Assembly: GCA_050618055.1 (NCBI GenBank)
Contig: JBNLVK010000172.1
Span: forward strand, 14,644 to 78,643
Length of the DNA: 64,000 nucleotides
From: Myxococcota bacterium
GTDB lineage: Bacteria > Myxococcota_A > UBA9160 > SMWR01
Direction of reading: 5' to 3'
Each line of letters starts with the position of its first letter. Positions within the stretch are counted from its first letter, which is position 1. A program made the position numbers and the translations under genes. The notes beneath the pieces were generated by a model. The model did no database searches and was not told the origin of the DNA. It worked only from the letters and a program-made list of their open reading frames with translations. Positions 251 to 64,000 of this stretch are shown here, one piece after another.

Positions 251-2206
251 TCAGTCCGCGAGTGCGTAGGCCCGCAGCGAGTCGCCGATCCCGGTCAGCG
301 GGTTGCCGCCCGCCGCGATCACCAGGAACTGCCGGCCCTGCGGCGACAGGCGATAGGTCATGGGCGTGGCGTTGCCGGTGAAGGGAATGCGCTCGCGGAA
401 GACCTCCTCGCCGGTGTCGGCGTCGAAGGCGCGCAGGTAGCGGTCGGTGGTGGCGCCGATGAAGTAGAGGCGTCCGGCGGTCACCAGCCCGCCGCCGAAG
501 TTCGGGGCGCCCAGGTGCCCGGTCCAGGGGATCGCCCACAGCGGGAAGGGCGCCTGGTCGCGGGTGGTGCCGAGACGCGAGCGCCACAGCACCTCGCCCG
601 ACGTCAGGTCGACGGCGGTGAGCGTCCCCCACGGCGGCGGGTTGCAGGGCGCGCCGAAGCGCGAGAAGAGCGGCGCCCGCACCACGCCGTAGGGCGTGCC
701 GGTCATGGGGTAGGCCTCCAGCGGGTACTGGACGCTGCCCGGCGGCATGGCGTCGAACTCGGCCCGCGGCACCAGCCGCACCGACATCGCGATGTGGGTC
801 TGGTTCGTGTACAGGATGGCCCGCTCCGGATCGATCGCGACGCCGCCCCAGTTCATGCCGCCGGCGCTGTGGGGGAACTGGATCGATCCCTCGAGCGTGG
901 GCGGCGTGAAGGCGCCGTCCCAGCGCAGCGCCGCGATCTGCTCGCGGCAGGAGGCGCGGTCGATCGGCGTGAAGCCGAAGGCGTTGTCCACCGTGAGCTC
1001 GGTGGGGTGCAGCGGCGGCGGGTGGGTCGGAAAGGGCTGGGTCGGCGACAGCGTCTCGCCGGGCACGCCGCCCTGGGGCACCGGCCGCTCCTCCACCGGG
1101 TAGAGCGGCTCGCCGGTCTCGCGGTCGAGCAGGAAGACGTGGCCCATCTTGGTGGCCTGGGCCACCGCCGGCCGCCCGCCGCCCACGCCCGGGTGCTGGA
1201 AGAGGGTGGGCTGGCTCGCCACGTCGAAGTCCCAGACGTCGTGGTGGACGGTCTGGAAGTGCCAGACCACGCGGCCGGTGCGCGCGTCCAGGGCGACCGT
1301 CGAGCTGCCGTAGTGGTCGAGCCCGCGGCGCTGGCCGCCGTAGCTGTCCGGCGACGGGTTGCCGGTGGGAACGAACACGAGCCCGCGCTCCGCGTCGCCC
1401 GACAGCAGCGACCAGACGTTGGGCGTGCCGCGCTGGTAGAGCTCGCCCTGGCGCCGCTCGACGGGGAAGCCCGGCGGCACCGGATCCCACGCCCAGACGC
1501 GGGCGCCGCTGCGCACGTCGAAGGCGCGCACCACGCCGGCCGGCGCATCCACCTTCAGCTGGTCCGCCACCAGCGCGCCGATCACCGCCACGTCGCCCAT
1601 CACCAGCGGCGGCGACGTCGGATAGTACTCCCAGGGCGCCGCCTCGCCGATGCCCTCGCGCAGCGCCACGCGACCGCCGTCGCCGAAGTCGGCGCAGGGG
1701 AGCCCCGAGTCCGCGTCCAGGGCGATCAGCTCCGCGTCCTTCGTGCCGTAGAGGATGCGGCGCTGGCAGGCCGCTCCCGCGCGCGGCTCGTCCTCCTCCC
1801 AGTACGCCACGCCGCGGCAGGTCAGCGGATAGGGGCCGCCGGTCTCGCGCGCGCGCAGCTGCGGGTCGAAGCTCCAGCGCTCCTGGCCGGTCTCCGGGTC
1901 GAGGGCGAACACGCGCATGAAGCCGGTGCAGTAGTAGAGCGTGTCGTTCACCACCAGCGGCGTCACCTGGAAGTTGGTGGGCGCCCGCTCGGCGTCGCCG
2001 GGGTGGAAGTCGCCGCTGCGATGCTCCCAGGCCAGCTCCAGGCGATCCACGTTGCCGCGGTGGATCTGGGCCAGCGGCGAGTAGTGGAGCCCGCCCTCGT
2101 CGCCCCCCCACTCGGGCCAGATCGCCACATCCGCGCCCGGACCGGGCGCCGGCGCCGCGTCGCTGCACGCGGCGAGGAGGAACAGGAATGCGAGGGCGCG
2201 TCGCAT
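251..2206 (-). CDS. PQQ-dependent dehydrogenase (quinoprotein glucose/sugar dehydrogenase family), lipoprotein form
   Basis: 651-aa ORF. Lipobox-like N-terminus FLFLLAAC|S. The sequence is beta-propeller quinoprotein-like throughout (WPEWGGDEGGLHYSPL, DVWDFD, GGMNWGG, TGEVLW). It is a paralog of 45270..47252. Confidence 0.9.
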   Translation of the reverse strand: MRRALAFLFLLAACSDAAPAPGPGADVAIWPEWGGDEGGLHYSPLAQIHRGNVDRLELAWEHRSGDFHPGDAERAPTNFQVTPLVVNDTLYYCTGFMRVFALDPETGQERWSFDPQLRARETGGPYPLTCRGVAYWEEDEPRAGAACQRRILYGTKDAELIALDADSGLPCADFGDGGRVALREGIGEAAPWEYYPTSPPLVMGDVAVIGALVADQLKVDAPAGVVRAFDVRSGARVWAWDPVPPGFPVERRQGELYQRGTPNVWSLLSGDAERGLVFVPTGNPSPDSYGGQRRGLDHYGSSTVALDARTGRVVWHFQTVHHDVWDFDVASQPTLFQHPGVGGGRPAVAQATKMGHVFLLDRETGEPLYPVEERPVPQGGVPGETLSPTQPFPTHPPPLHPTELTVDNAFGFTPIDRASCREQIAALRWDGAFTPPTLEGSIQFPHSAGGMNWGGVAIDPERAILYTNQTHIAMSVRLVPRAEFDAMPPGSVQYPLEAYPMTGTPYGVVRAPLFSRFGAPCNPPPWGTLTAVDLTSGEVLWRSRLGTTRDQAPFPLWAIPWTGHLGAPNFGGGLVTAGRLYFIGATTDRYLRAFDADTGEEVFRERIPFTGNATPMTYRLSPQGRQFLVIAAGGNPLTGIGDSLRAYALAD

Positions 2207-2256
2207 CGCGGCGCACTCTAGGCCATCCGCGTGCGGCGTGCGGGTAGAATGGCCGC

Positions 2257-3021
2257 ATGCCCGGACTGCGCGGACTCGACGGCTTCCCGGTGCTGCTGAC
2301 CGGCGGCGCCAGCGGCATCGGCCGCGCCACCGCGCTGCGCCTGGGCGAGGAGGGAGCCGTGGTCGGCGTGCTGGATCGCGACGGCGACGGCGCCGGCGCC
2401 ACCGCCGCGGCGATCGCCGACGCCGGCGGCCGCGCCCACGCCTTCGGCGTCGACATCACCGACGGCGCAGCGGTGGAATCGGCCGTCGACGACTTCGTCG
2501 CGCGCGCCGGCGACGTGAAGGGCCTGGTGAACTGCGCGGGCTGGGACCACGCCGGGAACTTCCTCGACACCGACCCGGATCTCTGGCGCAGGCTGATCGA
2601 CGTCAACCTGATGGGTCCGCTGCACGTGACGAAGGCGGTGCTCGCGCGCATGGCGGAGGCGGGCTTCGGCCGCGTCGTCAGCATCGCCAGCGACGCGGGG
2701 CGCGTGGGGTCGTCGGGCGAGTCGGTCTACGCCGCCTGCAAGGCGGGCATCGCGGCGTTCTCCAAGTCGGTGGCGCGCGAGATGGCGAAGACGGGCATCA
2801 CGCTCAACGTGGTCTCGCCCGGGCCGACCGACACGCCGCTGTTCGCCGACTTCGATTCCAGTGGGAAGCTCGGCCCGGCCCTGGCCCGCGCCATTCCCAT
2901 GCGTCGCCTGGGACGGCCCGAGGACTTCCCGGGCGCCATCGCCTTCCTGCTCTCCGACGACGCCAGCTTCATCACCGGCCAGACGCTCAGCATCTCCGGT
3001 GGTCTCACCATGCACGGATAG
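2257..3021 (+). CDS. SDR-family oxidoreductase, BadH-like (2-hydroxycyclohexanecarboxyl-CoA dehydrogenase-like)
   Basis: 254 aa. Motifs TGGASGIG, NCAGWD, SSGESVYAACKAG (YxxxK), VSPGPTDT and SISGGLTMHG. From memory these closely resemble Rhodopseudomonas palustris BadH. Confidence 0.85.
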   Translation: MPGLRGLDGFPVLLTGGASGIGRATALRLGEEGAVVGVLDRDGDGAGATAAAIADAGGRAHAFGVDITDGAAVESAVDDFVARAGDVKGLVNCAGWDHAGNFLDTDPDLWRRLIDVNLMGPLHVTKAVLARMAEAGFGRVVSIASDAGRVGSSGESVYAACKAGIAAFSKSVAREMAKTGITLNVVSPGPTDTPLFADFDSSGKLGPALARAIPMRRLGRPEDFPGAIAFLLSDDASFITGQTLSISGGLTMHG

Positions 3022-3036
3022 CCGAGGAACGAACGC

Positions 3037-3825
3037 ATGACCTTCGAAGACGTCCGCTACGAGGTCCGCGACCACGTCGCCACCATCACCATCGACCGGC
3101 CGAAGGTGCACAACGCCTTCCGCGGGCGGACCTGCGAGGAGCTGGTCAGCGCCTTCCAGAAGGCGGGCTACGACCGCGACATCGGCGCCATCGTGCTGAC
3201 CGGCGCCGGCGAGCGCGCCTTCTGCAGCGGCGGCGACCAGTCGGACCACGCCGAGGACGGCAGGTACGCCGGCGGGCGCGGGGTGATCGGCATGCCCATC
3301 GACGAGGTCCACTCGGTGATCCGCGACGTGCCCAAGCCGGTGGTCGCCAAGGTGCGCGGCTACGCCATCGGCGGCGGCAACGTGCTGGCCACCATCTGCG
3401 ACCTGACGCTGGCCGGCGAGAGCGCCGTGTTCGGCCAGGTGGGACCGCGCATGGGATCGGTCGACCCGGGCTTCGGCACCGCCTACCTGGCCCGCGTGAT
3501 CGGCGAGAAGAAGGCGCGGGAGATGTGGTTCCTGTGCCGCCGCTACAGCGCGGCGGAGGCGCTCGAGATGGGTCTGGTGAACGCGGTCGTGCCCGACGCC
3601 GAGCTCGACGCCGAGACCGACCGCTGGACGGCGGAGCTGGCCGCCCGCAGCCCCACCGCCATCGCACTGGCGAAGCGCAGCTTCAACGCCGACACCGAGG
3701 CCATCCGCGGCATCGGCTCGCTCGGCATGCAGGGCCTGGCCCTCTACTACGACACCGCCGAGTCGAAGGAGGGCGGCGACGCGCTGCGCGAGAAGCGGGA
3801 GCCCGACTTCCGCAAGTTCGCGTAG
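3037..3825 (+). CDS. crotonase-superfamily enzyme of the MenB/BadI subgroup (1,4-dihydroxy-2-naphthoyl-CoA synthase-like / 2-ketocyclohexanecarboxyl-CoA hydrolase-like)
   Basis: 262 aa. Motifs FCSGGDQ and GQVGPRMGSVDPGFG...EKKAREMWFLCRRYSAAEALEMGLVN, with a C-terminal REKREPDFRKF. These are MenB/BadI hallmarks. The gene lies 15 nt downstream of the BadH-like gene. Confidence 0.85.
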   Translation: MTFEDVRYEVRDHVATITIDRPKVHNAFRGRTCEELVSAFQKAGYDRDIGAIVLTGAGERAFCSGGDQSDHAEDGRYAGGRGVIGMPIDEVHSVIRDVPKPVVAKVRGYAIGGGNVLATICDLTLAGESAVFGQVGPRMGSVDPGFGTAYLARVIGEKKAREMWFLCRRYSAAEALEMGLVNAVVPDAELDAETDRWTAELAARSPTAIALAKRSFNADTEAIRGIGSLGMQGLALYYDTAESKEGGDALREKREPDFRKFA

Positions 3826-3864
3826 ACTGCGCGGGCCCGGGCCGGGAAGAAGGAGGAGGGACGC

Positions 3865-4596
3865 GTGGCGGAGCCGTTCGAGGATCGAAGCGAGGGCGTG
3901 CTGTCCAAGGTGATCGGGGGACGGCGCGGCTGCATGCAGGAGGTGGAGCGCCTGCTGGCGCGCGCAGACCGCGTGTCGGAGGTCGGCCAGGACCGGGTGG
4001 CCGAGGTGGCGTCGCGCCACAAGGTCGACTTCGGCAAGCGCATGCGCACCGGCCGCACCCAGCTCTACCGCCGCTTCCTCGAGCACTGCCTGCGCGACGG
4101 CCACCTCTCGGAGGAGGAGAGCGAGGCCCTGGAGCACCTGCGCTCGCTGCTGCGGCTGGACGACGAGAGCGCGTCGCGCGTCCACGACGAGGTGTCGCGC
4201 TCGGTCTACGGCGAGGCCGTCGACGAGGTGCTCGAGGACCAGCAGCTCGACCCGGAGGAGCAGGAGTTCCTCGAGCGGCTGCGCGGCCGGCTGGACATCC
4301 CCGAACCGGTGGCCGACGCGCTGCTGAAGGAGGGCGTGCAGCGCGCGCGCCAGCGCTTCTTCTCGAAGGCGGCGGCGCGGTCCGGCGTGTTCCTCACCTC
4401 CCACGAGGCGCCGCTCCAGCTGGTCGGCGCCTCCGAGACGTCGATCGAGGCGGCGGTGAACGACGCCCTCGACCAGGCCTGCCGCGCCGTGCCGCGCCTG
4501 CACTGGATCGAGGTGGGCAAGATCCGCGGCGAGGTGGTGGAAGGCCGCGTGAAGGAGTGGCAGGTCGAGCTGAAGGCCTGGCTCGACCCGGAGTAG
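3865..4596 (+). CDS. acidic helical-repeat domain fused to a C-terminal dodecin domain
   Basis: 243 aa. GTG start preceded by GAAGGAGGAGGG. The C-terminal ~65 aa (LQLVGASETSIEAAVNDALDQACRAVPRLHWIEVGKIRGEVVEGRVKEWQVELKAWL) match the dodecin pattern. Confidence 0.75.
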   Translation: MAEPFEDRSEGVLSKVIGGRRGCMQEVERLLARADRVSEVGQDRVAEVASRHKVDFGKRMRTGRTQLYRRFLEHCLRDGHLSEEESEALEHLRSLLRLDDESASRVHDEVSRSVYGEAVDEVLEDQQLDPEEQEFLERLRGRLDIPEPVADALLKEGVQRARQRFFSKAAARSGVFLTSHEAPLQLVGASETSIEAAVNDALDQACRAVPRLHWIEVGKIRGEVVEGRVKEWQVELKAWLDPE

Positions 4597-53241: not shown

Positions 53242-55739
53242 CGGTCGCGGTGAAGGGACACTGGGACGAGACCGCCCGCCCCGACGGCGCTCCCAGCCCG
53301 GCCTGGCAGCGCCTGATGGGGGCGCTCGAGCGGCTGGGCAGCGGCGAGCTGATGGTGCGCTGGGAGCAGGCGCGCCGGCTGCTCCAGGAGAACGGCGTCA
53401 CCTACAACGTCTACGGCGATCCGCGCGGCGTCGAGCGACCCTGGCAGCTCGACGCCGTCCCCATGCTGCTCGAGTCGCAGGAGTGGGCGGGCATCGAGGC
53501 GGCCGTGGCGCAGCGGGCCATGCTGCTCGACCGGGTGCTGGCCGACCTCTACGGACCGCAGCGGCTGCTGCGCGAAGACCTGCTGCCGCCGGAGCTGGTG
53601 TTCGCGCACCCGGGCTTCCTGCGCGCCTGCCACGGGCTGGCGGTGCCCGGCGATCGCTGGCTGCACGTCTACGCCGTCGACCTGGCGCGCTCGCCGGACG
53701 GCCAGTGGTGGGTGATCGCCGACCGCACCCAGGCGCCGTCGGGTGCGGGCTACACGCTGGAGAACCGGGTGGTGATGTCGCGGGTCATGCCCGAGGTGTT
53801 CCGCGAGTTCAACGTGAACCGGCTGGCCGGCTTCTTCCAGACCTACCGCGACTCGCTGCGCCGGCTGGCGCCGCCGGGCACCGACGCGCCGCGCATCGTG
53901 CTGCTGACGCCGGGTCCGTACAACGAGACCTACTTCGAGCACGCGTACCTGGCCCGCTACCTCGACTTCACGCTGGTGGAGGGCGCCGACCTGACGGTGC
54001 GCGACCAGCGCGTGTTCCTGAAGACGCTCCAGGGGCTTCAGCCGGTCGACGTCATCCTGCGCCGCCAGGACGCCCACTTCTGCGATCCGCTGGAGCTGTG
54101 GGGCGAGAGCGCGCTGGGCGTGCCCGGCCTGGTGCAGGCGGTGCGCGCCGGCAACGTGACCATCGCCAACGCGCTGGGGTCGGGCCTGGTGGAGACCAGC
54201 ACGATCATGGCCTTCCTGCCCGGCCTGTGCCGCCACCTGCTGGGCGAAGAGCTGCGCATGCCGTCGGTGGCCACCTGGTGGTGCGGTCAGGACCGGGAGC
54301 GCGAGTACACGCTGGCGCACCTGGACGAGCTGGTGCTGAAGCCCGCCTTCGCCGGTCCGGCGGGGCCCGACCAGGAGGTGGTGTTCGGCGGCGAGCGAAC
54401 GCAGGAGCAGCAGGGCGAGCTGGCCGAGCGCATTCGCGCGAAGCCCCACCGCTGGGTCGCCCAGGAGAAGGTGGCGCTCTCGACCGTGCCCACCGGCGAC
54501 CAGGACGGTCTCCAGCCGCGGCACATGGTGCTGCGCGTCTACGCGGTGGCCGACGGCGACGGCGGCTGGTCGGTCATGCCCGGCGGGCTCACGCGCGTGT
54601 CGAGCACGGCGGACAGCCTGGTGGTGTCGAGCCAGCGGGGCGGCGCCAGCAAGGACACCTGGGTGCTGTCCGACGCGCCGACGCCCTACGTGAGCCTGCT
54701 GCCGGCGGAGGGTCGGGCCGCCGACGTGTCGCGCGCCAGCTACTCGCTGACGAGCCGCACGGCGGACAATCTCTTCTGGCTGGGACGCGGCAGCGAGCGC
54801 ATCGAGGCGAGCCTGCGCCTGGTGCGCGCGGCCCTCCAGACCCTGGCCGAGGAGCCGCTGCGTCCGGCCGACGCGCCGCTGCCCGAGGCGGTGGCGCTGG
54901 TCGAGCGGTTGAAGCTGCTGCCCGAAGGCGACGAGGAGGGCGTCGGCCCGGAGGAACGGCTGTTCGCCGCGCTCTTCGACCGGGCGCAGCCCGGGTCGGT
55001 GGCGGGCAGCATTGCCGAGGTGCACCGGCTGGCCTGGCTGCTGCGCGACCGCATCTCGCCCGACGCCTGGCGCGTGCTGAGCCGCATCGACCAGGCGTTC
55101 GTGGCGCCCGACGTGCACCCGGCGCTGCGTGTCTCGGGCGTGCTCGAGCTGCTGGACGACACGCTGCTGCGCATTGCCGCCTTCACCGGACTGGTGGTCG
55201 AGGGCATGACCCGCGGCCTGGGCTGGCAGTTCCTGGAGGTGGGCCGGCGCGTCGAGCGCGGCATCCAGATCGCCGAGCTGCTGCGGGAGAGCCTGGTGGA
55301 GGAGCTGCCGGAGGGGTCGCGCCTGCTCGAGACCGTGCTGACGGTGGCCGACTCGTCCATGACCTACCGCTCGCGCTACCAGTCGTCGCTCCAGCTCCTG
55401 CTGGTGCTCGACCTGCTGCTGCTCGACGAGCTGAACCCGCGCTCGCTGACCTTTCAGCTGCTGGGGCTGGAGGAACGCTTCCGCGGTCTGCACCGCGCGC
55501 CCCACGACGCGCTGGCGGCGCTGGTGGCGCTGGTGCGCGAGACGCCGCTCGACGCGCTGGTGGCGCTGCAGCCGTCGACCGACGGGGGACCGGCGCGGCG
55601 TCCGGAGCTCGCGCGCGTGCTCGACGGCGTGCGCAGCGGCCTGCCCGAGCTGGCCGACGCGCTGAACCACGCCTACCTGAGCCACGCGCTGCCGTTCCGC
55701 CAGGGGCCCGGCTTCCGCCCCGGAGAGGGAGAGGTCTAG
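53238..55739 (+). CDS. fused circularly permuted ATP-grasp + alpha-E domain protein
   Basis: This is the 3' part of track ORF 50427..55739. The start is TTG 53238 (TTGA overlap) or GTG 53250. ATP-grasp motifs (WWVIADRTQAPSGAGYTLENR, NALGSGLVETS) are followed by alpha-E motifs (ADNLFWLGRGSERIEASLRL). Confidence 0.85.
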   Translation: MTVAVKGHWDETARPDGAPSPAWQRLMGALERLGSGELMVRWEQARRLLQENGVTYNVYGDPRGVERPWQLDAVPMLLESQEWAGIEAAVAQRAMLLDRVLADLYGPQRLLREDLLPPELVFAHPGFLRACHGLAVPGDRWLHVYAVDLARSPDGQWWVIADRTQAPSGAGYTLENRVVMSRVMPEVFREFNVNRLAGFFQTYRDSLRRLAPPGTDAPRIVLLTPGPYNETYFEHAYLARYLDFTLVEGADLTVRDQRVFLKTLQGLQPVDVILRRQDAHFCDPLELWGESALGVPGLVQAVRAGNVTIANALGSGLVETSTIMAFLPGLCRHLLGEELRMPSVATWWCGQDREREYTLAHLDELVLKPAFAGPAGPDQEVVFGGERTQEQQGELAERIRAKPHRWVAQEKVALSTVPTGDQDGLQPRHMVLRVYAVADGDGGWSVMPGGLTRVSSTADSLVVSSQRGGASKDTWVLSDAPTPYVSLLPAEGRAADVSRASYSLTSRTADNLFWLGRGSERIEASLRLVRAALQTLAEEPLRPADAPLPEAVALVERLKLLPEGDEEGVGPEERLFAALFDRAQPGSVAGSIAEVHRLAWLLRDRISPDAWRVLSRIDQAFVAPDVHPALRVSGVLELLDDTLLRIAAFTGLVVEGMTRGLGWQFLEVGRRVERGIQIAELLRESLVEELPEGSRLLETVLTVADSSMTYRSRYQSSLQLLLVLDLLLLDELNPRSLTFQLLGLEERFRGLHRAPHDALAALVALVRETPLDALVALQPSTDGGPARRPELARVLDGVRSGLPELADALNHAYLSHALPFRQGPGFRPGEGEV

Positions 55740-56665
55740 TGCTGTACGCCCTGCGCCACCGGACCACCTACGAGTACAGCGACACGGCGGTGATCTCCCA
55801 CAACCTGGGCCACCTGCTGCCGCGCAGCTCGGAGCACCAGACGCTCCACAAGCTGGAGCTGGGCATCGATCCGAGCCCGGCGGCGGTGCAGTGGCACCGC
55901 GACTACTTCGGCAACGACGTGGTGTTCTTCGCGCTCCAGCAGCCCCACGAGCGGCTGGTGGTGAACGCCGAGAGCCGGGTGGAGGTGAAGCCGCGCGCGG
56001 CGCTGCGCCTCGAGGCGTCGCCACCCTGGGAGGAGGTGGTGGAGAGCGTGCGGCGGGGACGCGACGACGCGTCGCTGGCGGCCTACGAGATGGTCTGGGA
56101 GTCGCCGTTCGTCTCCACCGGTCCCGACTTCGCCGACTACGCGCGCGCCGCGTTCACGCCGGGCCGGCCCCTGGCCGAGGCGCTGCTCGACCTGAACGCG
56201 CGCATGCACCGCGAGTTCCGCTACGACCCGGAGGCCACCACCCTGGCCACGCCCATCGAGGAGGTGCTGGCCCAGCGCCACGGCGTCTGCCAGGACTTCG
56301 CGCACCTGATGATCGGCTGCCTGCGGTCGCTGGGGCTGCCGGCGCGCTACGTGAGCGGCTACCTGAAGAGCGCCGAGCCGAAGAAGAAGCAGGAGAAGCA
56401 GAAGCAGGCGGCCGCCGGCGAGGCCGACCTGGTGGGATCCGAGGCCTCCCACGCCTGGGTGTCCGCCTGGTGTCCCGCCAACGGCTGGATCGACGTGGAC
56501 CCGACCAACGACGTGGTGCCCTCGGAGCGCCACGTGGTGCTGGCCCACGGCCGCGACTACGACGACGTGAGCCCGCTGAAGGGCGTGACCCTCGGCGGGG
56601 GCGGCCACACGGTGACCGTGGCCGTGTCGGTGCGGCCGGTGGAGGAGGTGGAGGCCTCCGCCTGA
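55739..56665 (+). CDS. transglutaminase-family protein (small form, intact Cys-His-Asp)
   Basis: GTG at 55739 overlaps the upstream TAG by 1 nt. Sequence LYALRHRTTYEYS, with HGVCQDFAH and SHAWVSAW...DVDPTN. 308 aa. Confidence 0.88.
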   Translation: MLYALRHRTTYEYSDTAVISHNLGHLLPRSSEHQTLHKLELGIDPSPAAVQWHRDYFGNDVVFFALQQPHERLVVNAESRVEVKPRAALRLEASPPWEEVVESVRRGRDDASLAAYEMVWESPFVSTGPDFADYARAAFTPGRPLAEALLDLNARMHREFRYDPEATTLATPIEEVLAQRHGVCQDFAHLMIGCLRSLGLPARYVSGYLKSAEPKKKQEKQKQAAAGEADLVGSEASHAWVSAWCPANGWIDVDPTNDVVPSERHVVLAHGRDYDDVSPLKGVTLGGGGHTVTVAVSVRPVEEVEASA

Positions 56666-56688: not shown

Positions 56689-57924
56689 GTGAAGACGGGG
56701 TACGGCAGGGCGTTCGGGGCGATCGGGCTCTGGCTGTGCATCGCGGCCGCGCCCGGCTTCGCCGAGGACGAGCCCGACCTGGGAAAGCCCGAAGCCGCCT
56801 GCCAGGCGGGTAGCGGCGCGGCCTGCGCCTACGTCGGCCGCCTGCTGCTGGTCGGCGCCCGGGGCGAGGAGCGCGCGGCCGAGGGGCGGGCGCTCCTCGA
56901 ACGCGGCTGCGAGCTCGAAGACGCGGACGCCTGCCTGCTCTTCGGCTCGGCGCTGCGCCAGGGTCTGGGCGGCCCCGCCGACGAGGCGGCAGGCGCGCGG
57001 GCCCACGAGAAGGGCTGCGACCTCGGCGCGGGGCTGGCGTGCACCCAGCTCGGTCTCGCCTTCATGCGCGGCAGCGTGGTGGAGCAGGACGACGCCCGTG
57101 CGCGCCAGCTCTTCGAGCGCGGCTGCGCGCTGGGCGACGCACAGGGGTGTCACAACCTGGGCGTCTACAGGCGCGACGGCCGAGGCGGGCCGGTCGACAC
57201 CGACGGCGCCCTCGCCGCCTTCCGGACCGGCTGCGACCTGGGCGACCTGACCCCCTGCGCCGACGTCGGCGCCAGCCTGGCGCGGGGCCGGCTCGGCCCC
57301 GAGCACGCAGCAGAGGGCCGCACGCTGCTGGCGCGCTCCTGCGACGGCGGCTTCGCCCGCGCCTGCAACGACCTGGCCGTCGCCTTCCGCCAGGGCGACG
57401 GCGGCCCCGCCGACCTGGAGGAGAACCTGCGCCTGCACGAGCGCGCCTGCGAGCTGGACTACGCGCCGAGCTGCACCCAGGCCGGCAACGCCTACCTGCA
57501 AGGGAAGGTGGTGGAGAAGGACCCGGCCCGCGCGACGGCCTTCTACGAGAAGGCCTGCCAGGGCGAGGACGAGACCGGCTGCCACAACCTGGCGGTCGCG
57601 CAGCGCGGGAGCACCGGCGCGGTCACGACGAAGATCGGCTCGATGACGGTCGGCTCGCGCGGCCGCACCGCCACCTTCCGCGACGTCGAGTCGAGCTGCG
57701 GGATGATCGCGATCACGGCGGCCTTCGGCGGCGCGGCGGCGGGCATTCGCGAGTGCCTGGACCGGGGCGGGAGCCGGCGCGTCAGCCTGGTCATCGAGGC
57801 GGGCCGGCTGGCGAGCGCCCGCGTCGAGCCCGACGACGAGGTGGGCGAGTGCATCGTGGATGCGATCGGCGGCGCTCCGCTCGGAAACTTCACCTGCACG
57901 CTCGACGCCACGGTGTCGCGCTAG
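56689..57924 (+). CDS. exported Sel1-like (Hcp-type Cys-paired) repeat protein with a C-terminal 4-Cys domain
   Basis: 411 aa with a GTG start. Signal peptide WLCIAAAPGFA|ED. There are about 8 repeats of the C-x(6-8)-C...G-x-G type (e.g. GCELEDADACLLFG, GCALGDAQGCHNLG). Confidence 0.8.
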   Translation: MKTGYGRAFGAIGLWLCIAAAPGFAEDEPDLGKPEAACQAGSGAACAYVGRLLLVGARGEERAAEGRALLERGCELEDADACLLFGSALRQGLGGPADEAAGARAHEKGCDLGAGLACTQLGLAFMRGSVVEQDDARARQLFERGCALGDAQGCHNLGVYRRDGRGGPVDTDGALAAFRTGCDLGDLTPCADVGASLARGRLGPEHAAEGRTLLARSCDGGFARACNDLAVAFRQGDGGPADLEENLRLHERACELDYAPSCTQAGNAYLQGKVVEKDPARATAFYEKACQGEDETGCHNLAVAQRGSTGAVTTKIGSMTVGSRGRTATFRDVESSCGMIAITAAFGGAAAGIRECLDRGGSRRVSLVIEAGRLASARVEPDDEVGECIVDAIGGAPLGNFTCTLDATVSR

Positions 57925-57944
57925 CGGATATCAGGGAGAGTGAG

Positions 57945-59033
57945 ATGAGATCGATGTGCTGGCTCGTGCGGGTCGTCTGCAGCCTGGGGCTCGCGTTCGC
58001 GGCGGTCGCGGCGAGCGCAGAGGAAGGTGTTCCCGCGGTGGAGTACCCCACCCTTCCCGACCGCGCCGCGTCCGCGGCGGAGCTGGTGCCCGAGGGCTGG
58101 GTCGTCGAGGAGGAGATCGCGGGCGACCTGAACGCCGACGGCTCCGACGACGTGACGCTCGTGCTGCGCATGAACGACCCGAAGAACGTCGTCGAGAACG
58201 AGGACCTGGGCGCGGACCGCCTCGACACGAACCCGCGCATGCTGGTGGTCGCCTTTGCCGACCCGGAGGCGGAGGGCCTGGCGCTCGCGCTGGCCGACCA
58301 CACCCTCATTCCGCGTCACACCGACCCTGTGATGGAGGACCCCTTCGGCGGCGTGGAGGTGTCGCGCGGGTCGCTGCGCGTGCTGGTGGGCCTGTGGATG
58401 AGCGCCGGCGGCTGGAGCACCACGAACACGAAGCTCACCTTCCGCCACCAGGACGGCTGCTTCCGCCTGATTGGCTACGACGGCACCGAGATGCAGCGCA
58501 ACACGGGCAGGCTCTCGCAGGTGAGCGTCAACTACCTGACCCGTAAGGCCCAGCGCAAGTGGGGCTACAGCGACGAAGCGATGAACGAGACCTGGGAGGA
58601 GGTGCCGGAGGCGAAGCTCCCCTGCCTGGAAGAGGTGGGCGACGCGCTGGAGTTCACGCCGGGCCTGGCGCCGCGGTCGGAGCGCGCGGAGGAGATGCTC
58701 GAGGCGGCGGCGAAGAAGGAGCCCGAGTGGTCGACGCGGGTCGCGGAGATGAAGCTCGGCTCGGGCGCGGAGTCAGTGACCCTGAAGGGGGTCCGGGCGA
58801 CGTGCGGGGAAGACCCGCTGCGCGAAGCGCTGGCGACGACGGCAGCAGAGCTATCCGCCTGCCTCTCGGAAGGAAAGACGGCCCACGTGACCGCGGCCTT
58901 CGCGGACGGCCGGGTCGCGACGCGGGTGGAGCCGGAGGATGAGGCGAGCTACTGCGTGGTCGAGGCGATGGACCGGGCGCATTTCGATGATCTCCAGTGC
59001 GTGTTCGATGCGAGGGTATCGGTAGGGCCCTGA
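57945..59033 (+). CDS. exported protein with an FG-GAP-like Ca-binding motif and the same C-terminal 4-Cys domain
   Basis: This is the 3' part of track ORF 57039..59033. ATG at 57945 follows GGGAGAG. Signal peptide VVCSLGLAFAAVAASA|EE. Motif DLNADGSDD. 362 aa. Confidence 0.65.
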   Translation: MRSMCWLVRVVCSLGLAFAAVAASAEEGVPAVEYPTLPDRAASAAELVPEGWVVEEEIAGDLNADGSDDVTLVLRMNDPKNVVENEDLGADRLDTNPRMLVVAFADPEAEGLALALADHTLIPRHTDPVMEDPFGGVEVSRGSLRVLVGLWMSAGGWSTTNTKLTFRHQDGCFRLIGYDGTEMQRNTGRLSQVSVNYLTRKAQRKWGYSDEAMNETWEEVPEAKLPCLEEVGDALEFTPGLAPRSERAEEMLEAAAKKEPEWSTRVAEMKLGSGAESVTLKGVRATCGEDPLREALATTAAELSACLSEGKTAHVTAAFADGRVATRVEPEDEASYCVVEAMDRAHFDDLQCVFDARVSVGP

Positions 59034-59168
59034 ATCCAGGCTCCGGCCAAGCCCTGCTTGCGCCGACAAGCGATGGATCCTGCCCGACACCATGCAGTTT
59101 CTGGCATGCTGTACCTCTTCATCGAGGCCATCTCTCGTCGATCGGCCCACAGCAAGAGGTCCTGCCCC

Positions 59169-59630
59169 ATGACGTCTCGGTTTGGCTCCGTGGCTCTCGC
59201 GCTCATCTCAGGCATCGCACTAGGAATCGTCGGATACGCAGCCTACCGCGGCGACCTGCGCTGGACGCCCCCGGCGGAGGCCGAGCTGGCGGCCCGGGAA
59301 GCCCAGCCCGAGGTCGCTGCGGCGCCGCCGAAGCAGGCGGCACCCGCCAAGCCGAGCCCGCTACCCAAGCTCCCCGTCTCGCTCAACCACTACGAGAACC
59401 GCCGGGGGCGAGGCTATATCGTCCAGATCCACAACCAGTCGCAGAAGCATCTGGCCGTCCTCATCGAGCTCGAGAACCCGACGCTCGAGCAGGAGCAGAA
59501 CGCGGCCGTTCAGCTCGCCCCGGGCGAGATCCGCGAGATCGGAGAGGCTCAGGGCTGGACCTTCGTCTCCGGGGAGACGATCCGCGTAAGGCAGAAGGGC
59601 TACCAGACCGCTTCGCTGACGATTCCGTAG
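59169..59630 (+). CDS. hypothetical single-pass membrane protein
   Basis: The internal ATG at 59169 is used. TM segment FGSVALALISGIALGIVGYAAY. A Pro/Ala linker precedes a ~70-aa beta-rich C-terminal region. 153 aa. This is the first gene of the low-GC cassette. Confidence 0.5.
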   Translation: MTSRFGSVALALISGIALGIVGYAAYRGDLRWTPPAEAELAAREAQPEVAAAPPKQAAPAKPSPLPKLPVSLNHYENRRGRGYIVQIHNQSQKHLAVLIELENPTLEQEQNAAVQLAPGEIREIGEAQGWTFVSGETIRVRQKGYQTASLTIP

Positions 59631-59640
59631 GAAACGAACG

Positions 59641-60723
59641 ATGCCCCTCTTCGAACTCGGAAAGGACGACCTCACCGAGATCGCGCCCACGACCTTCGTA
59701 GCCGAGCAGATCTACGAGCGCGACGATCTCCAGCGAATCCTGCGTGACCGCTTCGACGCGGTCGATCCCGACGTCCTGATCGTGGCCGAGGAGTTCGGTG
59801 CCTGGCAGGACAGCTCGCGCCGCATCGACCTCCTTGGGGTAGACCGCGGCGGAACGCTCGTCGTCGTGGAGCTCAAGCGAACGCGGGACGGCTCGCACAT
59901 GGAACTCCAGGCGCTGCGCTACGCGGCGATGATCTCGAATCTGGATGCGTCAGATATCGCCGAGGCCTACGAGGGCTACCTCCGCGGAAAGGGGGACTCC
60001 GAGACGGATGCCCAGGACGAGCTGTGCACGTTCCTCGGATCGGAATCCATCGACGAGATCGAGATCAGCGACCGGCCGCGCATCATCCTGATCTCGCAGG
60101 GATTCGGAACGGAGCTTACGACCGCGGTGCTGTGGCTCAACGAAGGCGGGCTCGACATCCGCTGTGTGGAGGCCCTTCCCTACCGCGTGCACGATCACCT
60201 GCTCCTGGACGTACGCCAGGTCATTCCGCTTCCGGAGGCCGCGGACTACCAGGTGCACAAGCAGAAGAAGAGCGAGCGGGCGCGGTCGATCCGCCAGCAG
60301 AGCAAGGACTATACGAAGTTCGACTTCGAGGCCGACGGCAAGAGGGAGACCCGGCTGCCCAAGAGGCGCTTGATCCGCGCCATCGTCCTGCACCTCTGCT
60401 CCAAGGGAGTGACGCCCAGGGAGATCCAGGAGGCGATCAGCTGGAGGAACCGGGTCTTCGCCGTCCTGGACGGCGAACTCAACCAGGCTGCCTTCGAACG
60501 CACCCGCGACGAGCAACGGCGCCGAGGCGGGAGGCAGGCCGACTCTCGCCGCTTCTTCACCGAAGACGACGAGCTGATCCACCACGCCGGCAAGACCTAT
60601 GCACTCACGGCGATGTGGGGAATCAACACGCCCCGTGCGGCGGAGGATCTGCGCGCAGCGTTTCCGGAGCATCCGTTCGAGTACGCGCCTAGCGCTGGAA
60701 CGGAAGCGGATGAAGGCGACTGA
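59641..60723 (+). CDS. NucS/DUF91-like PD-(D/E)xK nuclease-domain protein with an uncharacterised C-terminal domain
   Basis: 360 aa. The core RRIDLLGVDRGGTLVVVELKRTRDGSHMELQALRYAAM follows the D...ExK...QxxxY pattern. The gene starts 10 nt after the upstream stop. Confidence 0.7.
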   Translation: MPLFELGKDDLTEIAPTTFVAEQIYERDDLQRILRDRFDAVDPDVLIVAEEFGAWQDSSRRIDLLGVDRGGTLVVVELKRTRDGSHMELQALRYAAMISNLDASDIAEAYEGYLRGKGDSETDAQDELCTFLGSESIDEIEISDRPRIILISQGFGTELTTAVLWLNEGGLDIRCVEALPYRVHDHLLLDVRQVIPLPEAADYQVHKQKKSERARSIRQQSKDYTKFDFEADGKRETRLPKRRLIRAIVLHLCSKGVTPREIQEAISWRNRVFAVLDGELNQAAFERTRDEQRRRGGRQADSRRFFTEDDELIHHAGKTYALTAMWGINTPRAAEDLRAAFPEHPFEYAPSAGTEADEGD

Positions 60724-60752
60724 CCCGCCAAGAGTTGAGCGATATCCCCTCC

Positions 60753-62135
60753 ATGCCGGAATCTGCGATCGTGGTCCATGCCGACTGGGGCACACATCCC
60801 CGGAAACGCTGGATGGCGCGTGCCGACCGGATCGGCTCGGGGCGATTCCGCTGCTCTGCCTCGCAACCGGTCGGGAACGCCGACCGCCTGATACCCGACC
60901 TCCTGGATCAGGCGCCCTCGACCGGAGGGGTCGTCGTCGGCTTCGACTTTCCCATCGGCCTTCCAGAGAAGTACGCAGCTATCGCTCAGGTCGGTGACTT
61001 CAAGGCCTTCCTGGAAAAGGCCGGCTCGGGGGAGTGGAGCGATTTCTTCAGGGCTGCCGAACACCCCAGCCAGATCGGGCTTGGACGGCCCTTCTATCCG
61101 CAAAGACCTGGGGGAACCCGGCAGTCCCAGCTCGTCGATGCGCTTGGCCTGGCCGACTTCGACGACCTGCGTCGCCGGTGCGAGAAGGCGCGTCCGGGCC
61201 GCGGGGCCGCGTGCCCGCTTTTCTGGACACTCGGAGGCCAGCAGGTGGGCAAGGCAGCCATCTCCGGCTGGCGCGATGTGATCCAGCCTGCGATCCGGCG
61301 TCTCGGTTCCGCGATCTCCTTGTGGCCGTTCGATGGACCCCTTGCGGAGCTGATCGCACGCCAGGGGGTCGTCCTTGGGGAGACCTACCCCGCGGAGTTC
61401 TACGGTCACCTTGGCGTCGAGTTCCCGCGTCCCCAAGCAGGTGGACGCTCGGGCAAGCGGGTGCAGGCCGACCGGGCGGCGAACGCCCGCGCCCTGCTCG
61501 ACTGGGCCGCCCGAGCCGCCGTCGAGATCTCGGCCGACCTGGAGGGGGAGATCCGGGACGGTTTCGGAGACGGGTCGGACGGCGAGGATCGCTTCGACGC
61601 GGTCGTCGGGCTCTTCGGGATGCTGAACGTCCTGCTCGGATTCCGGCCGTCGGGCGAGCCGGGTGAACCCGCCGTCGCGAACGTGGAGGGATGGATCCTG
61701 GGGCAGCTCGAGTCACCCGGATCGGGTCCCACCTCCCCGGCTCCGATCGCTGTAGAATCGCCTCCGGTTCACCCCATGGGCAACGACCTGGACCGGATCA
61801 TGGCGACGCTCAGGGCGTTCGCGCGGGAACGGGATTGGGAGCGCTTCCACTCCCCGAAGAACCTGGCGATGGCGCTCTCGGTCGAAGCCGCAGAGCTTCT
61901 CGAGCACTTCCAGTGGATCACGGAAGCCGAATCGCGCGAGCTGGGCCTCGACGAGCGTGCCCAGGTCGCCGAGGAGATTGCGGACGTCCAGATCTACCTG
62001 ATGACCCTGGCGGACAAGCTCGGGATCGATCTGGTCGCGTCCGTCGATTCGAAGATCGAGAAGAACCGGGCCCACTACCCGGCGGGGGAGGTCCGCGGCA
62101 GCGCCGTCCGGCCGCCGAGAAGCCTCGACGAATGA
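60753..62135 (+). CDS. fusion protein: N-terminal DUF429-like (RNase-H-fold, tentative) domain plus C-terminal MazG-type nucleotide pyrophosphohydrolase
   Basis: ATG at 60753 (a TTG at 60735 is also possible). N-terminal motifs VVVGFDFPIGLP, GETYPAEFY and DRFDAVVGLF. C-terminal RDWERFHSPKNLAMALSVEAAELLEHFQW...EEIADVQIYLMTLADKLGIDL. Confidence 0.8.
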   Translation: MPESAIVVHADWGTHPRKRWMARADRIGSGRFRCSASQPVGNADRLIPDLLDQAPSTGGVVVGFDFPIGLPEKYAAIAQVGDFKAFLEKAGSGEWSDFFRAAEHPSQIGLGRPFYPQRPGGTRQSQLVDALGLADFDDLRRRCEKARPGRGAACPLFWTLGGQQVGKAAISGWRDVIQPAIRRLGSAISLWPFDGPLAELIARQGVVLGETYPAEFYGHLGVEFPRPQAGGRSGKRVQADRAANARALLDWAARAAVEISADLEGEIRDGFGDGSDGEDRFDAVVGLFGMLNVLLGFRPSGEPGEPAVANVEGWILGQLESPGSGPTSPAPIAVESPPVHPMGNDLDRIMATLRAFARERDWERFHSPKNLAMALSVEAAELLEHFQWITEAESRELGLDERAQVAEEIADVQIYLMTLADKLGIDLVASVDSKIEKNRAHYPAGEVRGSAVRPPRSLDE

Positions 62136-64000
62136 TCGTCTACTCCGAGCCCAAGAGCCGCTTCCAGGCCGACGTCGCGGCGAACCGGGTCTCGAACCGG
62201 ATCTCCAAGCTGCTACGGGAGAAGGTCGGCCAGAGGGTCGGAGCGAGCGAAGAGCGGTCCTGGCAGAACTCGCTGCTCTACATGAGAAACGTCCTGGACG
62301 ACGACGACATCCCGGACGATGCCCAGGTCAGCCTGGAGTACAAGATCCCGCTCACCTCGATGCGGATCGACGTGATCGTTTCCGGCCAGGATGCCGAGCG
62401 GCGCGATACGGCCGTCATCGTAGAGCTGAAGCAATGGGAGATCGTCGAGAAGACGTCGAAGGACGCCATCGTCTCGACGTTCCTCGGGGGAGGGAAACGC
62501 GAGACCAACCACCCTTCCTACCAGGCCTGGAACTATGCCGCGCTGCTCAGGGACTTCAGCGAGACCGTCCAGACCGAGGACATCGACCTGCGCCCGTGTG
62601 CCTATCTCCACAACTGCACGACACCTGACACGGTCCTCGATCCGTTCTACGCCAAGCACCTGGAGCGAGCCCCCGCCTTCCTGCGGAGCGACGCCGAGCG
62701 CCTTCAGGAATTCATCAAGCGCTACGTCAAGCACGGGGACGAGCGCGACCTGATCTTCCGCATCGATCGAGGGAGGATCCGGCCCTCCAAGGCGCTAGCG
62801 GACGTGCTCGTCTCGATGCTGGAAGGCAACGAGGAGTTCCGGCTGATCGACGAGCAGAAGCTGGTCTTCGAGACGGCTCTGTCCCTGGTGGACGAGGGGA
62901 AGGCAGATCGCAAGCGTGTGCTCATCGTCGAGGGAGGCCCAGGGACCGGGAAGTCGGTGGTCGCCATCCAGCTCCTGGTCGAACTCACGGCCCGCGGGCT
63001 CCTCACCCAGTACGTCTCGCGCAACGCCGCGCCACGCGACGTCTACCAGGCCAAGCTCTCCGGCACTTTCACCAGGACGAGGATCAGCAACCTCTTCCGC
63101 GGCTCCGGGGCCTTCATGGACGTCGAGAGCGACACCTTCGATGCGTTGATCGTGGACGAGGCACACCGGCTGAACGAGAAGAGCGGGTTCTACGGAAACC
63201 TCGGCTCGAACCAGGTCATGGAGCTCATCGACGCGGCTCGGACCACGGTGTTCTTCATCGACGAAGATCAGCGCGTCACGATCAAGGACATCGGAACGAA
63301 GAAGCAGATTCGTGAGTGGGCCGAGGAGCTGGGAGCGGAGGTCACGGAGCTCGAGCTGGCCTCACAGTTCCGGTGCAACGGCTCCGACGGCTACCTCGGA
63401 TGGATCGATCACGCCCTCCAGATCCGGGAGACCGCGAACACCGATCTGGGAGGTCTGGACTACGAGTTCCGGGTCTGCGATTCGCCTTCGGAGCTGCGCG
63501 ATCTCGTTTTGGAGCGGAATCAAGACACGAACAAGGCGCGCCTGGTCGCAGGCTACTGCTGGGACTGGAAGAGCAAGAAGGACCCTTCCGCCTTCGACAT
63601 CGAGTTCCCTGGGACCGACTTCCGCATGCGCTGGAACCTGGACACCGACGGCAACCTCTGGATCATGATGCCCGAATCGGTGAACGAGGTGGGCTGCATC
63701 CACACCTGCCAGGGCCTGGAGCTCGACTACGTGGGTGTCATCATCGGCGACGACCTCGTGGTCCGCGACGGAGAGGTGGTGACCGACGCATCGCAGCGGG
63801 CTCGGCGCGACAAGTCGGTGCACGGACTGAAGAAGCTTGCCAGGCAGGACGCGGCCGAGGCTGAGCGAGTCGCGGACCGGGTCATCAAGAACACCTATCG
63901 AACCCTCATGACACGCGGGCAGAAGGGGTGCTTCGTCTACTGCACGGACCCCGAGACGCTCGAGTACTTCCGCGCCTTCGCCTCCGGGGCCACGACGACG
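62132..64000 (+). CDS. DUF2075-type protein: N-terminal PD-(D/E)xK-like module plus P-loop ATPase/SF1-helicase-like domain (3' end beyond the window)
   Basis: This ORF is not in the supplied track because it has no stop in the window; the translation is my own. ATGA overlap with the upstream gene. Motifs MRIDVIVSG...AVIVELKQW, Walker A GGPGTGKS and Walker B ALIVDEAHRL. Also QFRCNGSDGYLGWID, CIHTCQGLELDYVGVIIG and TYRTLMTRGQKGCFVYC. The frame stays open for 623 codons to the window end. Confidence 0.85.
   Translation, partial: MIVYSEPKSRFQADVAANRVSNRISKLLREKVGQRVGASEERSWQNSLLYMRNVLDDDDIPDDAQVSLEYKIPLTSMRIDVIVSGQDAERRDTAVIVELKQWEIVEKTSKDAIVSTFLGGGKRETNHPSYQAWNYAALLRDFSETVQTEDIDLRPCAYLHNCTTPDTVLDPFYAKHLERAPAFLRSDAERLQEFIKRYVKHGDERDLIFRIDRGRIRPSKALADVLVSMLEGNEEFRLIDEQKLVFETALSLVDEGKADRKRVLIVEGGPGTGKSVVAIQLLVELTARGLLTQYVSRNAAPRDVYQAKLSGTFTRTRISNLFRGSGAFMDVESDTFDALIVDEAHRLNEKSGFYGNLGSNQVMELIDAARTTVFFIDEDQRVTIKDIGTKKQIREWAEELGAEVTELELASQFRCNGSDGYLGWIDHALQIRETANTDLGGLDYEFRVCDSPSELRDLVLERNQDTNKARLVAGYCWDWKSKKDPSAFDIEFPGTDFRMRWNLDTDGNLWIMMPESVNEVGCIHTCQGLELDYVGVIIGDDLVVRDGEVVTDASQRARRDKSVHGLKKLARQDAAEAERVADRVIKNTYRTLMTRGQKGCFVYCTDPETLEYFRAFASGATTT

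Follow-up and report, generated by a model that had tools for sequence, protein, structure and literature searches.

Nhi of Staphylococcus epidermidis is a single-protein anti-phage nuclease-helicase that degrades replication intermediates (10.1101/776245; 10.1101/2022.05.11.491447). MazG domains have been predicted to be defensive, so far without experimental validation (PMC13092281), and MazG-like domains replace the deoxynucleoside triphosphate (dNTP)-depleting effector in rare PUA-Calcineurin-CE-HAD systems (10.64898/2026.01.15.699771). DUF429 belongs to clade D of the RNase H-like superfamily, together with RuvC and the terminases, and carries conserved, putatively catalytic acidic residues in its first and fourth strands (Majorek 2014, PMC3985635); its recorded fusion partners are NUDIX, RelA/SpoT and phosphomethylpyrimidine kinase (PMC3985635, PMC3153485). 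In MSMEG_5849 of Mycobacterium smegmatis (MS_RHII-RSD), a DUF429 domain with RNase HII activity is joined to a RelA/SpoT (p)ppGpp synthetase (PMC4429107, PMC3153485). Here we describe a gene in which a DUF429-like domain is fused to a MazG-like domain. It lies in a 64,000-nucleotide stretch (the window) of contig JBNLVK010000172.1 from a Myxococcota bacterium, directly upstream of a gene for a DUF2075 helicase. An initial annotation of the sequence had noticed the fusion and knew of no characterised example, which was too strong a statement in view of MSMEG_5849 (PMC4429107, PMC3153485) and the recorded DUF429-NUDIX fusions (PMC3985635).

The open reading frame (ORF) is uninterrupted from ATG 60753, or from an alternative TTG at 60735, through 62135 on the forward strand (Table 1). 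ATG 60753 is the start favoured by the alignment of homologues (consensus 'M....P.LV.HADWS') and gives a product of 460 amino acids. The motifs quoted in the initial annotation were all located in it: GFDFPIGLP at residues 63-71, ETYPAEF at 210-216, DRFDAVVG at 279-286, the Pro/Ser linker motif SPGSGPTSPAPIAVESPPVHP at 321-341, and the MazG-like tail. The possibility of an assembly artefact, raised at the same time, was checked against L177, a 6,740-bp contig from the Logan assembly of run SRR30568138, which encodes an identical 460-residue protein (P0001) and shows 1 mismatch in 6,740 bp to window positions 57240-63979. With a second, independent assembly containing it, the fused ORF is not a single-assembly error; the fusion is a genuine but rare gene. 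NCBIfam and PADLOC profile searches of the fusion protein gave no match. Our scan of 58.7-62.4 kb found no promoter-like sites, and terminator-like sites there were at background level, one of them inside the fusion ORF. In a MAFFT alignment for the full-length protein, MazG homologues were interleaved into the columns of the N-terminal domain (N-domain), and there are no co-varying fused homologues that would bear on the packing of the two domains.

Residues 342-460 are, by sequence comparison, a complete all-alpha MazG-like domain of the DCTPP1/RS21-C6 type, in agreement with the dCTP-pyrophosphatase-type enzyme first proposed for this tail. The Pfam family MazG-like (PF12643) matches residues 375-446 with 56.8 bits (cut-off 27; E 2.6e-15), and the solved structures of the pyrophosphatase 4qgp and of DCTPP1 (6sqw) match residues 337-447 (E 3.1e-21) and 343-453 (E 8.2e-21), respectively. 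The ExxE...ExxD metal ligands are kept as E378, E381, E408 and D411, are at least 98% conserved among 122 aligned subfamily sequences, and lie in segments that align with 'gEvgE' and 'EelsD' of DCTPP1. Pocket residues common with DCTPP1 are found in RDWxxFH, FQW, IYL and N..YP, and the metal-ligand and pocket motifs show conservation of 95% or more across the 120 nearest homologues. All 120 are single-domain proteins of 115-172 residues, as had been expected for MazG enzymes of this kind, and the fused copy is therefore unusual. DCTPP1-type enzymes are house-cleaning enzymes, DCTPP1 itself prefers 5-modified dCTP, and all-alpha MazG enzymes form dimers or tetramers.

The N-domain was approached through its family. 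Pfam gave no match to it, either for residues 1-336 at E ≤1 or within the full protein at E ≤0.1, and the N-domain alone had no NCBIfam or PADLOC match. When 1.84 billion cluster representatives were searched exhaustively, 7,645 matched at E ≤1e-3 and 525 at E ≤1e-30; most family members are stand-alone proteins of ~320 residues, 46-60% identical to the query and distributed across many phyla. The DUF429 profile matches 14 of 61 aligned members, and three homologues score above the gathering threshold of 23 for DUF429 (PF04250), over profile positions 9-205 of 214 (P0036, 28.2 bits; P0076, 27.1; P0057, 25.3). Some homologues are named 'DUF429 domain-containing protein' by NCBI. The label 'DUF429-like RNase H-fold domain' is thus supported by comparison at the level of the family, with no single significant score for the query, which itself falls below the Pfam threshold. 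Forty-seven columns are invariant in the 61-sequence alignment, among them D11, D65, E210, D279 and D282, and all 47 are kept in the fusion.

The AlphaFold2 model of the N-domain had a predicted local distance difference test score (pLDDT) of 91.2 and a predicted template modelling score of 0.91. Its elements follow the order β1-β2-β3-α-β4, a long helical insert, and β5-α. D11 ends β1 (strand 5-11), D65 lies just past β4 (strand 59-64), E210 closes β5, and D279-x-x-D282 opens the C-terminal helix. Both hallmark acidic residues of DUF429, in the first and fourth strands, are present in the form of D11 and D65, and the overall acidic layout is one that we take to resemble the D/E/D-x-x-D arrangement of RuvC. 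Foldseek searches with the model gave no statistically significant match (best E 0.13 in the PDB and 0.015 in BFVD); the top matches in both databases, though weak, were nearly all RNase H-like and comprised RuvC, Ydc2, reverse transcriptase RNase H, Argonaute PIWI, large-terminase nuclease domains, RNase H and Holliday-junction resolvases. A search of PDB sequences with a profile of the N-domain family found nothing. The RNase H fold proposed in the initial annotation draws some backing from the acidic hallmarks, the DxxD in the C-terminal helix and the type of fold matched, none of the matches being significant in itself. On its acidic residues and weak fold matches, the N-domain is predicted to be a RuvC/terminase-type RNase H-like nuclease.

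The gene context, which the initial annotation did not include, makes the fusion the middle gene of a defence-island operon. GC content drops from 0.72-0.78 to 0.62-0.67 at ~58.8-59.0 kb, the edge of the island, and the low-GC stretch contains three co-directional genes, encoding PDC-S11, the fusion and the DUF2075 helicase. PDC-S11 has weak NucS and Cas4 matches, and its orthologue in the sister locus L086 is 90% identical and occupies the same position. The start of the helicase gene overlaps the fusion stop as ATGA. PF09848 (DUF2075) covers residues 261-606 of its product, which ends at residue 622 in the window copy, whereas the L086 sister protein has 796 residues. D80...E98-L-K100 and the Walker A motif GGPGTGKS are at least 90% conserved in 80 sequences, and the combination of an N-terminal PD-(D/E)xK motif with a DUF2075 superfamily 1 (SF1) helicase in one protein is the Nhi-like architecture. 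The best PADLOC match of the helicase was PDC-S41 (3.6e-17), followed by weak, partial matches to AbiO (1.7e-9) and Nhi (2.8e-9); a sequence search of the PDB with the helicase found no relative. We also noted a weak C-terminal match to Peptidase_S24 (LexA-like; 4.9e-7) in the L086 helicase (1742-4132), in a region beyond the cut of the window copy.

MazG and DUF2075 genes occur together well beyond this locus. A DUF2075 gene adjoins each of the three closest stand-alone MazG genes that were looked up, and a metagenome scan with the window helicase gave a helicase-anchored set of 80 loci (L097-L176; 54-61% identity). A MazG-like gene was found in 65 of the 80, directly upstream on the same strand in 59, convergent downstream in four, divergent in one and farther upstream in one; seven of the 15 loci without it are too short upstream to judge. 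With such a companion in 65 of 80 loci, the helicase clade of the window does not appear to be a single-gene system in the manner of Nhi-like proteins. An ATGA stop/start overlap is present at 53 of the 80 helicase starts. The genes flanking MazG-DUF2075 in 50 longer loci include type I and type IV restriction, PbeA, HNH nuclease and mad genes, with further matches to a ThsC-like HIT protein and several PDC candidates, and individual related modules neighbour PLD-SNF2-DUF3427, Fic, HEPN/MNT or McrBC genes. More distant plasmid MazG genes (47-50% identity) do not adjoin DUF2075, so the pairing is subfamily-specific. No paper in the literature searched names DUF2075 and MazG together. MazG and DUF2075 appear to form a conserved, widespread, translationally coupled two-gene operon that has not been described before and that usually has restriction and other defence genes around it.

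Comparison with the sister loci showed where the fusion was made. The closest stand-alone MazG, P0270 (77% identity), is encoded in loci L086-L090, where the order is PDC-S11 (90% identity), 119-residue MazG and DUF2075 (87% identity, 796 residues). In blastn alignments, window positions 59388-60739 correspond to L086 1-1352 with 84.7% identity and positions 61775-63980 to L086 1385-3590 with 82.6% identity; the segment between them, with the N-domain and the linker, has no counterpart in L086 (Table 1). M342 of the fusion (ATG 61776) aligns with the MazG start of L086 ('MGRDLDRIMAALR' versus 'MGNDLDRIMATLR') and, on this alignment, marks the point at which translation of the ancestral stand-alone MazG began. 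The N-domain is present neither in the related MazG-DUF2075 loci L091-L096 nor in any of the 80 helicase-anchored loci, which by parsimony points to an insertion in the lineage of the window. Within the linker, pLDDT is below 50 at residues 327-336, and the linker includes the stretch of the ORF with the lowest GC content at third codon positions (GC3; 0.53-0.58 versus 0.80-0.89 in the flanks), which one other stretch of the ORF equals. An out-of-frame TAG lies at 61753-61755, 21 nt ahead of M342; together with the GC3 it weakly hints that the fusion was created recently, by loss of a stop or a change of frame. A blastn search of the linker against the regions upstream of related MazG genes found no similarity, and an origin of the linker from the ancestral upstream region was rejected, as the tblastn extension into L094 crosses a stop. 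On these alignments a DUF429-family gene was inserted upstream of, and in frame with, a DCTPP1-like MazG gene; jointly with the functional explanation given below, we consider it somewhat more probable than the contrary that the fusion is evolutionarily recent.

The association of N-domain, MazG and DUF2075 is not confined to the window. The survey of the architecture called for by the initial annotation found the window order in one strain alone, the reverse order in two proteins and separate genes in one locus, giving three gene layouts that are always beside a DUF2075 helicase. P0022 (474 residues, locus L001) has MazG at residues 1-115, then a linker and the N-domain; a DUF2075 homologue (52-62% identity) stands divergent beside it, with SNF2-PLD, McrBC and DUF4011 helicase genes close by. 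P0402 (L181), 82% identical to P0022, has the same layout and a divergent DUF2075 gene. Locus L008 (1553-7434) contains two tandem cassettes with separate N-domain, MazG and DUF2075 genes and signs of decay. Its first cassette combines DUF2075 with an intact N-domain gene and with a divergent MazG that has no canonical start; in its second, a frameshifted N-domain with its own stop is followed, after a spacer of ~90 nt, by an intact MazG and the beginning of a further DUF2075 gene, which the contig end cuts off. The first L008 MazG reads FHGAKDL and EHFRF where the subfamily has the invariant FHSPKNL and EHFQW. Relative to the window, the partners in the other three-way loci are ~40% (MazG) and 25-62% (helicases) identical, compared with 77% and 87% in the L086 sister.

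The existence of two fusion orders proves at least two independent fusion events. Fused forms are nevertheless rare: among the top 120 cluster hits they are P0001 and P0022 only, the top 150 representatives include none, no fused homologue was found among the 72,556 records of the plasmid collection, and a scan of viral contigs with P0022 gave no match. The three MazG-linked N-domains do not cluster in a neighbour-joining tree, which is star-like, and a single ancestral 'defence' subclade comprising them was rejected as unsupported by this tree.

Elsewhere, the N-domain family keeps varied company. In 15 Chloroflexota loci (L037, L040, L044, L045, L052, L053, L055, L056, L061, L063, L067, L071, L072, L079 and L080) an AlkZ-related DNA-glycosylase-like gene (PF24741, 1.4e-31) is followed, 26 nt downstream, by a stand-alone DUF429-like gene, an adjacency that hints that the family may take part in DNA processing in a repair-type operon. 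A fusion to DUF6946 recurs in seven proteins (P0392, 2e-79; P0394, P0395, P0398, P0399, P0143 and P0409), and one gene for such a fusion adjoins a DUF4011/AAA_11/AAA_12 helicase and a phage integrase. P0415 combines the DUF429-like domain with an HD_4 domain of the (p)ppGpp-hydrolase type, and HIT, HEPN_Swt1, HepT, DinB_2, OsmC, methyltransferase and AIRS domains were each seen in a single fusion. On plasmid pMVF16-5 of Microvirga sp. VF16 (L180; NZ_CP069359.1 45870-46793), a 'DUF429 domain-containing protein' 46.6% identical to the N-domain is encoded ~1.9 kb downstream of a DUF3578-domain gene. The alphaproteobacterial neighbours of stand-alone N-domain genes (SDR, luciferase-like, alpha/beta hydrolase and EamA) look like lineage synteny and were discarded as a functional clue.

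We slightly favour the explanation that the fusion belongs to a defence module directed at replication, to which it would contribute as an accessory subunit, both nuclease and dNTP pyrophosphatase. The module would act against phage DNA replication. By analogy with Nhi, the helicase-nuclease would attack replication intermediates, while the MazG half would hydrolyse dCTP, or 5-modified dCTP or dNTPs, so that the precursor pool is depleted or sanitised. The DUF429-like half, by analogy with MSMEG_5849, could serve as a second, two-metal nuclease of the RNase H/RuvC type on RNA-DNA hybrids or branched DNA. Fusion to MazG would in addition bring the nuclease domains together in a dimer or tetramer, the oligomeric states of all-alpha MazG enzymes. 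Support for this explanation comes from catalytic motifs that are intact in both halves, from the pairing of MazG with DUF2075, from the three layouts in which the association recurs and from neighbouring defence genes. A more specific version, which we put forward tentatively and with clearly less confidence, is that MazG-DUF2075 is an undescribed and widespread two-enzyme anti-phage system that couples destruction of dCTP or modified dNTPs to degradation of replication intermediates, with the DUF429-like domain as a third, modular arm cleaving RNA-DNA hybrids or branched DNA, and that DUF429 domains in general are nucleases which have repeatedly been coupled to nucleotide-pyrophosphate enzymes (NUDIX, RelA/SpoT, HD, HIT and MazG).

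Several observations weigh against the favoured explanation. Most members of the N-domain family are in housekeeping or repair-like neighbourhoods and not in defence islands, and the finding of no N-domain in any of the 80 helicase loci means that it is dispensable for the module. The fold matches of the N-domain are not significant (E 0.13 and 0.015 at best), and the query does not reach the DUF429 threshold of Pfam. The order with the N-domain first comes from a single strain, and with its atypical linker codon usage and out-of-frame TAG the fusion may be a very recent stop-loss product, untried by selection. The role of MazG, whether depletion, sanitation or regulation, is pure inference.

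Three other explanations were considered. The locus could serve housekeeping DNA hygiene, in which MazG would clear non-canonical dNTPs, the RNase HII-like half would excise ribonucleotides or lesions, and the DUF2075 protein would be a repair factor. What is known of the DCTPP1 family as house-cleaning enzymes speaks for this, as do the position of the N-domain gene 26 nt past the AlkZ-related gene in the 15 Chloroflexota loci and the majority of the N-domain family that resides among metabolic genes. The RNase HII activity of the M. smegmatis DUF429 domain would fit as well (PMC4429107). The gene of the window, however, is situated in a low-GC island, beside PDC-S11 and overlapping an Nhi-like gene, and restriction, McrBC, PbeA, Fic and HEPN genes lie around related modules. 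Its patchy distribution and a sister locus 83-85% identical in DNA in unrelated metagenome samples also suggest mobility, and we regard DNA hygiene as unlikely. Neutral read-through, in which an inserted DUF429-like gene lost its stop by frameshift or point mutation and the halves are uncoupled or one is decaying, would account for the occurrence of the window-type order in one strain, the low linker GC3 with the TAG ahead of M342, and the separate genes of L008 with their frameshifted N-domain copy and a MazG lacking a canonical start. It is at odds with the intact invariant residues of both halves, with the independent opposite-order fusion found in two sequences 82% identical to each other, and with the adjacency of N-domain, MazG and DUF2075 in four divergent loci, which is hard to explain without functional linkage; this explanation, too, seems improbable to us.

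A small-molecule pathway, which we judge quite improbable, would have the DUF429-like half act on a nucleotide or nucleotide-capped end (a signal or a cap) and MazG carry out the next hydrolysis. The recurrent fusions of DUF429 to NUDIX, RelA/SpoT and phosphomethylpyrimidine kinase (PMC3985635, PMC3153485) are compatible with it, and so are the MazG-like (in both orders), HIT and HD_4 partners of the N-domain family. Against this, the acidic pattern and the fold neighbours match RuvC/terminase nucleases, the one DUF429 domain tested cleaves RNA-DNA hybrids (PMC4429107), and the partners also include HEPN, HepT, DUF6946, methyltransferase, DinB and OsmC, so that the nucleotide theme is not exclusive. 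For the clearance of cyclic oligonucleotides or signalling nucleotides, which the initial annotation had considered, we found no specific support.

The features of the locus are collected in Table 1. Family searches of the small ORF at the island edge gave no match, and a tRNA scan for an attachment site of the island found none within the window. Outside the island, on the high-GC backbone, the window carries at ~53300-56665 (forward strand) a CP_ATPgrasp_2 plus Alpha-E fusion protein (PF14403, 2e-159; PF04168, 2e-62) followed by a Bact_transglu_N/Transglut_core protein, the known circularly permuted ATP-grasp/alpha-E/transglutaminase set. A Sel1-repeat protein (56689-57924, forward) and a predicted secreted 362-residue protein without a family match (57945-59033, forward) come next; the C-terminal ~70 residues of these two are alike by eye ('...VEPEDE..YC/ECVV/IVDA...F.C..DA.VS').

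Table 1. Coordinates of the fusion gene, its parts and its neighbours in the 64,000-nucleotide window.
Feature	Position	Strand	Evidence
Fusion ORF, 460 amino acids plus stop	60753..62135	+	ORF list; identical P0001 on independent contig L177
DUF429-like (predicted RNase H-like) N-domain, residues 1-322	60753..61718	+	61-sequence alignment; AlphaFold2 model; homologues past the DUF429 cut-off
Invariant acidic residues of the N-domain	D11 60783-60785; D65 60945-60947; E210 61380-61382; D279 61587-61589; D282 61596-61598	+	
Pro/Ser/Gly linker, residues 323-341, 19 codons	61719..61775	+	Predicted disordered
DCTPP1/RS21-C6-type MazG-like domain, residues 342-460	61776..62135	+	Pfam and PDB matches; subfamily motif conservation; L086 collinearity
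1,035-bp segment (N-domain and linker) without counterpart in L086 (32-bp spacer there)	60740..61774	+	blastn
DUF2075/Schlafen-group-3 helicase with N-terminal PD-(D/E)xK-type motif	62132..64000, cut by window end	+	PF09848, E 3e-106
PADLOC candidate single-gene defence protein PDC-S11, 360 amino acids, NucS/Cas4-like nuclease core	59641..60723	+	PDLC04909, E 8.7e-120
Small ORF at the low-GC island edge	59058..59630	+	ORF list; called as 153 amino acids in L177; syntenic in L086 and L177

Fusions of DUF429 to nucleotide enzymes and Nhi-like helicases were known before; the MazG-DUF2075 operon appears to be new, with the fusion as a rare recent elaboration of it. If the defence explanation is true, an RNase H-like nuclease, a dNTP pyrophosphatase and a Schlafen-type helicase-nuclease are joined in one candidate immune module, and the two fusion orders together with the split form would make a Rosetta-stone argument for joint action of the three enzymes. 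A large clade of Nhi-like DUF2075 helicases would then not be single-gene, a translationally coupled MazG coming along with it. The fusion would also offer an entry point to the function of an abundant, well-conserved DUF429-like family that counts over 7,600 representative clusters and lacks a solved structure. In humans, Schlafen helicases and DCTPP1 have roles in replication stress and in the control of nucleotide pools, and with these counterparts the bacterial pairing is perhaps of comparative interest.

Among known systems, Nhi (S. epidermidis SERP2475) and the Nhi-like proteins resemble the downstream gene in their PD-(D/E)xK motif and DUF2075-overlapping SF1 helicase (10.1101/776245; 10.1101/2022.05.11.491447), the sequence similarity of the window helicase to the PADLOC Nhi and AbiO models being weak (~1e-9). 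Nhi works alone, whereas in the helicase clade of the window a MazG-like gene almost invariably overlaps the helicase start, and now and then a DUF429-like domain is present too. MSMEG_5849 likewise joins an N-terminal DUF429-type domain to a nucleotide-pyrophosphate enzyme (PMC4429107, PMC3153485). Its partner is a synthetase, however, while that in the window is an all-alpha NTP pyrophosphohydrolase of the DCTPP1 type; the N-domain, with ~320 residues, is only distantly related to the 214-position DUF429 Pfam model, and the window fusion, unlike MSMEG_5849, is set in a defence-island operon with a DUF2075 helicase. The DUF429-NUDIX fusions are a precedent for DUF429 with a nucleotide pyrophosphohydrolase (PMC3985635), although the NUDIX fold differs and no DUF2075 is involved. 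DCTPP1/RS21-C6 and the archaeal 4qgp align end to end with the 119-residue C-terminal half (E ~1e-21) and have the same ExxE...ExxD ligands and pocket residues; they are stand-alone small proteins, whereas the domain in the window is part of a fusion and belongs to a subfamily coupled in an operon to a DUF2075 helicase. The PUA-Calcineurin-CE-HAD systems share the use of MazG-like, predicted NTP-targeting defence effectors (10.64898/2026.01.15.699771; PMC13092281), with a PUA/HAD partner set and no DUF2075 helicase, in contrast to the operon described here.

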